DNA of 64,000 nucleotides, taken from NCBI RefSeq assembly GCF_000026545.1, contig NC_011601.1. One strand, written 5' to 3'. Under the pieces are notes generated by a model. The model ran no database searches. It saw nothing but the letters and a program-made list of their open reading frames with translations, and was not told where the DNA came from. A program made the translations under genes and the position numbers. This document shows, in pieces, positions 28,066-29,668 of the stretch (position 1 is its first letter; the number at the start of each line of letters is the position of its first letter). Source of the DNA: Escherichia coli O127:H6 str. E2348/69. Lineage in GTDB: Bacteria; Pseudomonadota; Gammaproteobacteria; Enterobacterales; Enterobacteriaceae.

Positions 28066-28251
28066 TTATTTCGTTTGAATGCCAGTAACAGGAAATCGTT
28101 TATATAGGGTTGATAGCCCAACGTTATAGATACGTGCAACATAACGCCGCGATTTCCCTGCCGCTATGAGCGCTCCCATCTGTTGCCACTGCTCGTCGCT
28201 AAACTTCGGTCTACGCCCACCAATCCGGCCTTTGGATCTGGCAATAGCCAA
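28066..28251 (-). pseudogene. Remnant of a serine DNA invertase (Pin/Hin family), C-terminal HTH only
   Basis: 61 aa ORF ...GRRPKF...ARIYNVGLSTLYKRFP resembles only the C-terminal DNA-binding domain of Gin/Pin invertases; no catalytic N-terminal domain present. Confidence 0.6.
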
Positions 28252-28256
28252 ACCAG

Positions 28257-28625
28257 CTAAAGTTCCGGGATGACAGGCCAGTTAACATGCTCAGGGTCGG
28301 TTGTTACATCAACAGCCTTAACCTGATTCTTATATAAAAGCCACGCCGAAAGTTTAGCTCTGTTGGCATCGCTGATTTCACCCAGCATCAGCTCTGTGCG
28401 CCAGTCGAGCATAATTGCATCAGCGGCGGACAGTAATCGCTGTCGCTCATTTTCAGCAGCCTGGATGAGTTGTTCATGAGTCGGTGGGGGATTAATAATT
28501 TCCATAGCCTCACTTCTGGTGATTGGCACAAGCCCTTCTTTGATAAAAGCATCCTGTGTGCCATACGCATCGTAGGCATATACGACGTTATTTTCATCTT
28601 TGTAATACTTCATCATTGTTATCAT
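28257..28625 (-). CDS. Tail fibre assembly protein (Tfa)
   Basis: 122 aa, Tfa-like sequence, immediately downstream of the tail fibre gene. Confidence 0.75.
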
Positions 28626-29668
28626 TTTTTATCCACCTCTGCCCAGGTAACATCTGACACAGTTCCTGAAAACTGCCGCACGACATAGGTCGCACCGGCA
28701 GGAACCATGAATGCGATAGTTGCTCTGTGCCCTGCAAGATTTGTTGTCTGATTGCCGCGAAAATTAGCCAAATTACCATCCATATTAACGTCGGCGCTCA
28801 GAAATGAACTACCGTCAGACATCACCGCATTGACGCTTACAAATATGGCGAAAGACTGGCTGTTGGTGTATACGACACCGAGATTTCTAGATTTCATTCC
28901 GCATTGACCAAACAACCCTTTCATATCTGAGTAGTTTTGTGATGCAGCAAGTGATGATGCGGCAACACCAGATTCTGTTGATGTTCTGGAATCAGATACG
29001 CGGATAATTCCCTTGTTTGTAGTGGTTGCATCATTAGTCTTGCCTTGCAGAGCTACAATATCCGCATAATTCATCGCTGCCGCTTTTGCTGTTGCAGCAA
29101 GCGTTTCAGATTCGGATACCCTTGATGATGTAAGTTGAACAATTCCTTTCTGTGTCGTAGTTGAATCCTGAGTTTTGTTTTGCAAAGATTTTATGTCCGT
29201 ATAGTTTTGCGCGACAGCATTAGCTGTGGCTGCAATATCCTCTGCACCCGATACCCGCGATGACGTTAACCGGACTAAACCCACCTGTGTTGTTGATGCG
29301 TTTTTAATACCAAGGTTTTCGAGAGCCGTTTGCACAGTGCCATCCGATTTGATATCGCCAAACGGATTCTTGCGGCTCAGGTATTCAACAGCAAACCCCG
29401 ATCCCAGCAATTCAACAAAACCGGGCAGATCACCATTATCAAGCACATCCCGTTGCGTTTTATCACTTACAAACTGGGCCAGAGCTGCAGCAATAAAGCT
29501 GGCCTGCCGAATAACCTTATTGACTTGCGCACTGGATGCTTTCCCTGCTGTAAATCCGGATATAAGCGCAGGCAACGCTTCCCATTCCTCCTGCGACATA
29601 ACATTGGCATTTCGATCAGTTGCAAACGCTTTAAAGTCATTTTTCGCCATCAGAGTAATACTCCCCAT
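28622..29668 (-). CDS. Side tail fibre protein with three internal ~40-aa repeats
   Basis: 348 aa; repeated units [16 protein letters not shown]...NY.DI..LQ.KT; upstream of tfa in baseplate-to-fibre order. Confidence 0.7.

Follow-up and report, generated by a model that had tools for sequence, protein, structure and literature searches.

Remnants of a probable, now locked host-range switch in the tail operon of the argW prophage of Escherichia coli O127:H6 E2348/69

Introduction

Invertible tail fibre segments of the Din family, including the G segment of Mu with Gin, the C segment of P1 with Cin, and the P segment of e14 with Pin, share a common order of S, U/tfa, and invertase genes, all co-directional, and carry a crossover site within the fibre gene at the joint between its constant and variable parts. 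In Gin, Hin, and Cin, a Fis-dependent enhancer lies within the first part of the invertase coding sequence. Decay of such switches is ordinary, well understood, and already known; the cryptic prophages of K-12, for example, carry pin-type pseudogenes of the same decayed class as the locus described here.

The same gene order and the same placement of the crossover site occur in the prophage at tRNA-Arg/intS of enteropathogenic E. coli (EPEC) E2348/69. Relative to Mu, P1, and e14, however, this switch appears dead: it lacks a catalytic domain, a second site, and an Sv'/U' set, and it resides in a different phage backbone. A full-text literature search turned up no published work on the argW prophage of this strain. 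A survey of DNA inversion that included E2348/69 reported three invertible loci, in a Mu prophage and two P2-like prophages, and describes none in the argW prophage; for x100 coverage and a variant at 1:100, its authors estimated a false-negative probability of about 0.04 (Goldberg et al. 2014, PMC4272514).

Results

The window analysed here, meaning the whole stretch of 64,000 nucleotides (64 kb), is 100% identical to the E2348/69 genome, and its relevant features are listed in Table 1. The 348-aa fibre gene, the Tfa gene, and the invertase fragment of the original prediction were all recovered where it had placed them, on the minus strand. The backbone is that of a lambdoid-regulated myovirus of the vB_EcoM-606R2 group, with SEN34 as a distant relative. 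The fibre matches Phage_fiber_2 (Pfam, E=3.1e-14) and tail fibre families (PHROG), and the gene immediately downstream, whose PHROG matches are tail fibre assembly families, completes the pairing of a PF03406 repeat fibre with a Caudo_TAP chaperone. Homology boundaries divide the chimeric fibre gene into Sc, its constant part (aa 1-120), and Sv, its variable part (aa 121-348), with a weak match to Mu S around the joint (PDB 5YVQ, 8JU3); the C-terminal tip is presumed from its position to be the receptor-binding part. A scan across 27700-29900 found no promoter-like sites, and the candidate hairpin downstream of the remnant could mark the end of the late tail operon. Nearby ORFs at 32696-33848, considered as cargo, gave no solid match in Pfam or PADLOC. 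The start of IntS is the GTG at 26642 in the ORF and 26678 in the PGAP annotation.

Table 1. Features of the argW prophage end that carries the tail fibre locus (window coordinates).
Feature	Coordinates	Strand	Evidence
tRNA-Arg(CCT), argW, prophage attachment-site tRNA	26442..26516	+	ARAGORN, Rfam, RefSeq annotation
Prophage tyrosine integrase IntS	26642..27835	+	Pfam Phage_integrase, Arm-DNA-bind_3, Phage_int_M; annotation
Terminator-like hairpin (candidate), downstream of invertase remnant	27868..27885	-	Consensus scan only
Conserved 3' flank of invertase cassette	27913..28065	-	blastn against L003, L004, L005; homology from 27913
Gin/Pin-type serine DNA invertase remnant	28066..28263	-	tblastn, Pfam, PHROG, PGAP
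Tfa/U-type chaperone for tail fibre assembly, full length (122 aa)	28257..28625	-	Caudo_TAP E=1.3e-18; PHROG
Deletion/replacement junction, 8-bp microhomology TAAAGTTC	28258..28265	.	Parental homology boundaries
Tail fibre gene, intact ORF, 348 aa	28622..29668	-	ORF, Pfam, PHROG
Fibre C-terminal tip, aa 259-348	28625..28894	-	
Three tandem 45-aa (135-nt) Phage_fiber_2 shaft repeats, directly after crossover site	28895..29299	-	
Orphan 26-bp Din-type crossover site at Sc/Sv joint	29300..29325	.	Homology breakpoints, site scan

The invertase remnant corresponds to residues 123-187 of a 187-aa enzyme, namely the end of helix E and the HTH_7 domain. The gene lacks its first 366 bp and, with them, the resolvase-type N-terminal catalytic domain and its active-site serine. 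Consistent with the earlier claim that only the C-terminal HTH persists, Pfam reports HTH_7 alone (E=7.9e-13), PHROG assigns the fragment to DNA invertases, and a tblastn search of the window with two intact 187-aa invertases recovers residues 123-187 at 28263-28069 with 100% amino acid identity. Residues 1-122 have no counterpart in any frame of the 64-kb window (other tblastn matches, E>0.6); therefore, frameshift correction cannot yield a full gene. The remnant ORF spans 28066-28251, whereas homology extends to 28263, and PGAP annotates it as a pseudogene with a missing N-terminus. The intact parent invertase, as found in relatives, matches Mu Gin (3UJ3) over residues 1-181 (E=1e-58). By analogy with Gin, Hin, and Cin, a Fis-dependent enhancer was probably lost along with the 5' part of the gene.

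The crossover site was not located in 27836-28700, where a residual copy had been expected, but rather where the constant and variable parts of the fibre gene meet (Table 1). It reads GTTTTTAATACC-AA-GGTTTTCGAGAG, follows the 12-2-12 layout with halves ..AAACC NN GGTTT.., and encodes ..ALENLGIK.., with the core dinucleotide in the codon for Leu119. Homology to Sc runs from 29309 and homology to the Sv of a P2-like fibre runs to 29324, so the breakpoints overlap at the site. The constant half-site GGTTTTCGAGAG (29314-29325) is unchanged and exactly matches its counterpart at the functional site of the pinE switch of Z1323CEC0003; the variable half-site GTTTTTAATACC is degenerate. Neither two search patterns nor a half-site score turned up a partner, whether in 27836-28700 or in the rest of the 64-kb window, leaving a single site where intact relatives have two inverted 26-bp sites around the segment. 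A weaker candidate inside intS (27401, score 24/36) was taken as chance.

The junction lies at TAAAGTTC, which is common to the invertase parent and the tfa parent and overlaps the tfa stop codon. Intact invertase genes match as far as 28265, and tfa homology, as seen in the P2-like prophage of 23AR0998, begins at 28258. Among the matches listed (88 genomes matching), the flank at 28186-28265 is 100% identical to recombinase-annotated genes in 34/34 genomes, and the match always ends at 28265. The junction is unusually clean: tfa retains precisely its full length and ends in a hybrid stop codon. Invertase-catalysed deletion was rejected as its cause: CCAGCTAAAGTTCCGGG is unlike any crossover site, and the 8-bp parental microhomology explains the junction. 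Cassettes in an acyltransferase context (S1, the second EcPF16 copy, and the P0014 loci) were likewise rejected as donors of the tfa 3'-end, their homology beginning at 28275 rather than 28258. No second copy of the Sv-tfa allele, as a possible donor, was found in E2348/69 itself, each record carrying the allele in one place.

Two relatives retain the complete arrangement. ABWA45 shares the integration site and integrase of E2348/69, and its argW-intS flank, including the invertase allele, is 96.8% identical and unbroken to 28265; beyond that point it encodes an intact 187-aa invertase, an inverted Sv'+tfa' set, and then tfa and S. The interval 27836-28257 is continuous with ABWA45 and consists entirely of the invertase remnant and the flank on its 3' side, and that flank (27913..28065) also matches invertase cassettes of unrelated, dusA-integrated prophages at 97-98% (blastn). 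Z1323CEC0003 has an identical Sc, the same DUF2612 protein, and an intact pinE switch with two inverted crossover sites, TTCTCCCAAACCAA being present in both. Both differ from E2348/69 in their full 184-187-aa invertases, two inverted sites, and second tip-plus-chaperone set; their Sv alleles feature gp53-like and glycine-rich tips rather than the Phage_fiber_2 repeat tip. No second, oppositely oriented Sv'/U' set accompanies the E2348/69 locus, which contains no plus-strand fibre or tfa ORF. Decay has also occurred independently, with other endpoints, in TF5, Br_190, PD7, O145:H28 RM12581, and vB_EcoM-606R2. Each of these features a truncated invertase and/or inverted tfa' fragments beside a single functional-looking fibre set, and the breakpoints differ from case to case; EcPF16 alone shares the E2348/69 junction.

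The Sv-tfa cassette is shared more widely than the remnant. The P2-type fibre H and chaperone G of 23AR0998 and SfII/SfV-like prophages carry the same cassette at 97-99% DNA identity over the stretch that runs from the crossover site through tfa, whereas their constant parts and backbones differ; many of these SfII/SfV-like and P2-type carriers have an acyltransferase gene after the cassette, not an invertase. The tip allele itself is rare, with eight records from six strains among 5426 complete E. coli genomes. Unrelated phages are known to exchange fibre ends horizontally, and this sharing is an example.

The original prediction of three tandem repeats of roughly 40 aa holds for their number and arrangement but not for their length, which is exactly 45 aa (135 nt). 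The units occupy aa 124-168, 169-213, and 214-258 (window 29165-29299, 29030-29164, and 28895-29029). Pfam reports PF03406 in two stretches, and the third unit was recognized by in-register self-alignment. Sliding self-comparison of the fibre gene gives a repeat signal above chance: the protein is 67% identical at a 45-aa offset and 38% at 90 aa (other offsets ≤22%), and the DNA is 65% identical at a 135-nt offset and 53% at 270 nt, with the background nowhere above 41%. The repeats are, thus, present at the DNA level and not a coincidence of the protein alone. Pairwise identities are 62, 38, and 40% for protein and 62, 50, and 47% for DNA, with longest in-register exact runs of 6-8 nt.

Discussion

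We propose that the argW locus of E2348/69 is a decayed host-range switch whose fibre is now fixed in one form, a reading to which we assign a probability of roughly 0.87. A former invertible segment that is now fixed, as originally predicted, is well supported because intact syntenic relatives exist, an orphan site persists at the Sc/Sv joint, the invertase is cut at a defined junction, and the published inversion survey of this strain describes none of its invertible loci in the argW prophage. We infer from the relatives that theirs was the ancestral arrangement of this prophage lineage.

The locus would represent the distal end of the tail operon in a temperate, myovirus-tailed prophage, and the fibre gene would originally have been built for a Gin/Pin/Cin-type inversion switch. 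In such a design, Sc is joined at the 26-bp site to an exchangeable Sv, here comprised of the three repeats and the tip, which is followed by its own Tfa chaperone. A downstream serine invertase, as in the intact relatives, would flip the segment with a second, opposite tip-plus-chaperone set, and host range would alternate. Illegitimate recombination at TAAAGTTC may then have joined the final bases of tfa to the invertase gene at its codon 123, through either a simple deletion or the exchange of the old segment for an incoming Sv-tfa cassette. As the Sv-tfa allele is found mostly in phage backbones that lack an invertase, beside an acyltransferase gene, the underlying event may not have been a simple internal deletion but the replacement of a cassette. 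The predicted losses are the invertase catalytic domain, the putative enhancer-bearing stretch, the invertase-proximal site, and any alternative tip set. Because tfa came through the event at exactly its full length, the fibre is presumably still produced, in one form only, and the switch would be locked; the host range of the prophage would likewise be fixed, if the prophage is inducible. While its importance beyond annotation is small, the locus offers a clean, fully traceable example of the death of a host-range switch, in which a single illegitimate junction at 8 bp of microhomology would have cost the enzyme, one site, and the spare tip but spared a working fibre and its chaperone.

Where this decay took place is less certain. 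Strain EcPF16 has the identical junction in another prophage, one integrated at dusA, so the argW prophage need not be where the decay happened. Alternatively, a cassette already locked, comprising Sv, tfa, the remnant, and the 3' flank (27913-29325), could have arisen in another phage and been imported whole by a double crossover, with one exchange in the conserved Sc end and crossover site and the other in the conserved flank downstream of the invertase. We consider this origin possible but somewhat doubtful. The junction and 80 bp on each side are 100% identical in EcPF16, whose prophage is of an unrelated Mu-tail type and whose flanks outside 27913-29380 do not match the window; only two SNPs separate the copies across 27930-28660; and the junction was found in 4 of 20,395 records, namely three E2348/69 assemblies and EcPF16. 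Transfer, however, may have run in either direction, and, as ABWA45 shows, argW-type prophages natively carry the invertase 3' end with its flank, so an origin here is equally possible. Independent deletion, repeated at the same 8-bp microhomology, is a more remote possibility for the shared junction. Whichever history applies, the same locked cassette can occupy unrelated prophages, as seen in the argW prophage of E2348/69 and the dusA prophage of EcPF16.

The decayed-switch reading must also be weighed against proposals that some variability or function persists. One concerns the shaft repeats, which the original prediction regarded as giving scope for recombinational variation. Copy number does vary: the proteins sharing this fibre end include 64 with three units, 49 with two, and seven with one, and the EcPF16 dusA copy is exactly one unit (135 bp) shorter. 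A contingency device in which unequal recombination frequently alters fibre length is nonetheless very unlikely, as such a locus needs near-identical DNA repeats and these units, with 47-62% DNA identity, are too dissimilar for frequent recombination. Neither Tandem Repeats Finder nor a seed-based repeat finder reported a 135-nt array in 27800-29800, the units being too diverged, and the three independent E2348/69 assemblies are identical across the locus. Given this divergence and their membership in PF03406, a widespread structural family, the three repeats are conserved structural shaft modules rather than a substrate for fast recombination; their number would drift on an evolutionary timescale. 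A second proposal is that the locus still varies because invertases of other prophages act in trans on the orphan site and a cryptic partner. The intact constant half-site, the three active Din-type systems of this strain (PMC4272514), and the action of Pin-type enzymes on other prophages, reported for K-12 (PMC12529663), all agree with it. It is nevertheless highly improbable, since the window holds a single acceptable site with one degenerate half, and the survey describes neither an inversion in the argW prophage nor a large inversion in this EPEC strain (PMC4272514). Just as improbable is a living remnant, in which a predicted HTH-only peptide of about 61 aa (beginning MAIARSKGRIGG...; TTG start at 28251, 5 nt past the tfa stop codon) would be made from the late tail transcript, bind Din-type sites, and, as a trans-dominant competitor, tune or freeze the three active tail fibre switches of the other prophages in the cell (PMC4272514). 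The remnant ORF is intact, lies directly 3' of tfa in the same direction, and encodes a protein 100% identical to the matching part of functional alleles; isolated C-terminal peptides of Hin are, moreover, established to bind hix sites in vitro. If the proposal were true, a seemingly dead switch would be a regulator of live ones. A recent deletion, however, accounts for the perfect conservation, as the flanks are likewise near-identical to intact alleles, and the region has neither a promoter-like site nor, by eye, a clear Shine-Dalgarno sequence before the TTG. The remnants of independently decayed relatives also differ widely in length, one having an internal stop and others spanning about 50-105 bp, which argues against selection for an HTH peptide.

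In keeping with the decayed-switch reading and the PGAP annotation, the downstream "helix-turn-helix protein" should remain a pseudogene. Separately, one RefSeq annotation labels the fibre gene a pseudogene although its ORF is intact.

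A former tail fibre switch in the argW prophage

The tail fibre locus of the argW prophage was originally predicted to be a former invertible segment that is now fixed. This reading is upheld by intact relatives, an orphan crossover site at the joint between the constant (Sc) and variable (Sv) parts of the fibre gene, and a defined junction that fuses the tail fibre assembly chaperone gene (tfa) to an invertase remnant. The locus is a dead example of a classic kind of switch that is already well described, and it lies in a genome that has been studied closely. RefSeq already labels the invertase fragment a pseudogene. 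Over 27836-29700 the window agrees at 100% identity with three assemblies of E. coli O127:H6 E2348/69, and the locus lies at the left end of the prophage.

Features of the fibre locus and the adjoining prophage end (window positions)
Feature	Position	Strand	Evidence or context
Tail fibre ORF, intact, 348 aa	28622-29668	-	Pfam Phage_fiber_2 (E=3.1e-14); PHROG tail fibre families
tfa ORF, 122 aa	28257-28625	-	Caudo_TAP (E=1.3e-18)
Invertase-remnant ORF, 61 aa	28066-28251	-	Only HTH_7 (E=7.9e-13) and PHROG "DNA invertase"
tRNA-Arg(CCT)	26442-26516		Prophage integration site
Integrase IntS	26642-27835		Adjoins the fibre locus
Crossover site GTTTTTAATACC-AA-GGTTTTCGAGAG	29300-29325		Sc/Sv joint of the fibre gene

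Only the C-terminal piece of the invertase is present, as first proposed. When intact 187-aa invertases were compared with the whole window by tblastn, residues 123-187 alone were recovered (28263-28069; 100% amino-acid identity); residues 1-122 were not found in the window, all other matches having E>0.6. Frameshift correction therefore cannot restore a full invertase, the outcome that would have refuted the original prediction, and the observation of a remnant stands.

In the RefSeq record NZ_LT827011.1, the fibre gene is labelled a partial pseudogene, with the first ~190 codons annotated and 28626-29098 left without annotation. This label appears to be wrong because the ORF is intact at 348 aa. 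An identical protein exists in public collections (P0002), and assembly CP059840.2 names the product of the gene a tail fiber protein. The nearest solved relative, Mu tail fibre S, matches weakly around the Sc/Sv joint (E=4.6e-5). Several public records name 326-aa homologues of the fibre (P0006, P0014, P0022, P0029, P0045, P0048) "integrase"; these proteins carry Phage_fiber_2 repeats, their genes are flanked by those for a Mu Gp48-like protein and for a Caudo_TAP chaperone, and the name is evidently a propagated misannotation.

Intact switches and the orphan crossover site

ABWA45 shares the argW-intS flank, with unbroken 96.8% DNA identity to the window over 26400-28265. Beyond the equivalent of 28265, its sequence runs on as a complete 187-aa recombinase (Pfam Resolvase, residues 2-135; HTH_7, 138-179), which among solved structures matches Mu Gin best (PDB 3UJ3, E=1e-58). 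After the recombinase come a fibre end and tfa on the plus strand, then a minus-strand tfa and the fibre gene. Z1323CEC0003, which has the same DUF2612 protein as the window and a constant fibre part 100% identical from 29309 onwards, carries an intact pinE switch that is arranged in the same way. Of its two crossover sites, TTCTCCCAAACC-AA-GGTTTTCGAGAG lies within the fibre gene and TTTTCATAAACG-TT-GGTTTGGGAGAA beside pinE; the two form an inverted repeat of TTCTCCCAAACCAA.

The constant half-site in the window is identical to that of the Z1323CEC0003 fibre-gene site. Sc homology to relatives (loci L009, L016 and L017) begins at 29309 and Sv homology to the fibre of the P2-like prophage of 23AR0998 (97.2%) stops at 29324, so the two blocks overlap exactly on the site, as would be expected of a recombination joint. 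The site encodes ..ALENLG before the joint and IK.. after it, which makes Sc aa 1-120 and Sv aa 121-348. No other acceptable crossover site that could serve as partner was found near the locus or elsewhere in the window.

The junction that ended the switch

The junction reads ..GCCAAACCAGC-TAAAGTTC-CGGGATGACAGG.. in the window, ..GCCAAACCAGC-TAAAGTTC-GCTCGCTATTC.. in the intact invertase parent (ABWA45), and ..CCAGTATGGTT-TAAAGTTC-CGGGATGACAGG.. in the tfa parent (23AR0998); the parental sequences overlap by an 8-bp microhomology at 28258-28265. A 160-bp query spanning the junction matched 88 of 5426 complete E. coli genomes. Among the matches listed, the invertase-side 80 nt lie at 100% identity within recombinase-annotated genes (34/34 such genomes), invertase-side matches end at 28265 without exception, and the tfa side alone is matched in two genomes, from 28258 on. 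Only four records span the junction, namely the three E2348/69 assemblies and EcPF16.

The fusion falls in the last tfa codons, turning the TAA stop into TAG and leaving the chaperone at exactly full length. Invertase residues 1-122 were lost with it, as were the crossover site proximal to the invertase and any alternative fibre set. Characterised Din systems have their enhancer in the 5' part of the invertase gene, and for this reason it was presumably lost as well.

Because its sequence is unlike a crossover site, we attribute the junction to microhomology-mediated illegitimate recombination rather than to the invertase itself. Such an event could have been a plain deletion, which would have removed ~0.45-1.6 kb depending on the ancestor, or an incoming Sv-tfa cassette could have replaced the old segment. 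Phage backbones that lack an invertase also carry this Sv-tfa allele, and there an acyltransferase gene adjoins it (5/5 loci examined of one common 326-aa variant, plus S1 and EcPF16); homology of these copies to the window begins only at 28275.

The identical junction in EcPF16 lies in a different prophage, at dusA (4293217-4294526), with a Mu-type baseplate including GP46 and YmfQ. Its flanks beyond 27913-29380 are unrelated to the window, and 2 SNPs separate it from E2348/69 over 27930-28660. The simplest reading is that the locked cassette (Sv, tfa, remnant, and 3' flank) had a single origin and was then transferred by recombination, with one crossover in the conserved Sc end and crossover site and the other in the conserved flank downstream of the invertase. 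This allele of the fibre tip and tfa is rare (8 records, 6 strains), and E2348/69 has one copy of it. Three places in EcPF16 match it, including a degraded prophage (3594854-3595448; 99.8% identity to E2348/69) with an adjoining acyltransferase gene; several copies in one genome give scope for inter-prophage exchange.

Other decayed relatives and the published survey

Decay is frequent among relatives and has taken different forms. TF5 retains more of the invertase, interrupted by an internal stop, and a piece of the inverted alternative chaperone copy (tfa'); Br_190 has an annotated HTH remnant of ~105 bp and tfa' fragments; PD7 has ~50 bp of the invertase 3' end (window homology stops at 28117) and a tfa' fragment; O145:H28 RM12581 keeps nothing but a tfa' fragment; and vB_EcoM-606R2 encodes a truncated, 105-aa invertase. 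This variation in endpoints argues that invertase decay is neutral, with no apparent selection for the HTH peptide. Both wlxctx60 (5154-6966) and 23AR0998 (4280-7104) have a full invertase with a single fibre-end/chaperone set, which may be a decay intermediate or a switch that toggles the fibre on and off. Beside the 23AR0998 invertase, a sequence resembling a crossover site, TTTTAAAAAGGTTCGTTTCGAACAG, remains.

A whole-genome inversion survey of E2348/69 reported inversion at three loci, of which one belongs to a Mu prophage and two to P2-like prophages, and estimated a false-negative probability of ~0.04 for a 1:100 variant at x100 coverage (PMC4272514). Judged from the prophage types it describes, the survey describes no inversion in the argW prophage (PMC4272514), and this silence fits a locked locus.

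Shaft repeats

The three tandem repeats predicted in the fibre are real at both protein and DNA levels, although the unit is exactly 45 aa (135 nt) rather than roughly 40. The units, at aa 124-168, 169-213, and 214-258, begin three residues past the Sc/Sv joint and belong to the widespread structural repeat family Phage_fiber_2. Their pairwise identities are 62, 38, and 40% for protein and 62, 50, and 47% for DNA. Sliding self-comparison of the protein gives 67% at a 45-aa offset, 38% at 90 aa, and ≤22% at any other; for the gene, the values are 65% at 135 nt and 53% at 270 nt, against a background maximum of 41%. TRF and a seed-based finder did not report the 135-nt repeats because the units are too diverged.

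The suggestion that these repeats give scope for recombinational variation finds some support in that copy number differs among relatives, but is mostly not borne out. Among 120 cluster representatives with the same fibre end, some of them partial entries, the number of units is three in 64, two in 49, and one in 7; the EcPF16 dusA fibre has exactly one unit fewer, its array consisting of a unit 1/unit 2 hybrid and then unit 3. Unit number thus changes on an evolutionary timescale. The longest in-register exact matches between units of the E2348/69 gene are 6-8 nt and its three assemblies are identical in this region, which indicates that the units are no fast-variation device.

The surrounding prophage

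The argW prophage combines a contractile-tail structural module (DUF2612 protein, baseplate J, spike, DUF3383 and DUF3277 proteins) with lambdoid early and regulatory genes. Among sequenced relatives, the vB_EcoM-606R2 group is the closest (98.4% identity over the stretch that runs from the constant part of the fibre to baseplate J), and Salmonella phage SEN34 is further removed (75%). Two tRNA genes of the prophage, tRNA-Thr(TGT) and tRNA-Asn(GTT), lie at 51987-52142; they adjoin an HNH endonuclease gene and have the Q antiterminator gene on one side and the lysis genes on the other.

Between the spike gene and the upstream baseplate genes, a cargo slot (32696-33848, minus strand) holds two overlapping ORFs of unassigned function, 32696-33091 (131 aa) and 33078-33848 (256 aa). 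Their PHROG matches are phrog_5176 and phrog_17809, and Pfam gives none. The 131-aa product has a weak PADLOC HEPN_IX match (E=0.009) and an SRAYYALYH motif. The corresponding slot of syntenic relatives is occupied by a Doc/Phd toxin-antitoxin pair (ABWA45, Br_190) or by a DUF4282 gene (PD7, RM12581, Z1323CEC0003), and it resembles a hotspot for the exchange of toxin-antitoxin or defence genes within the tail operon.
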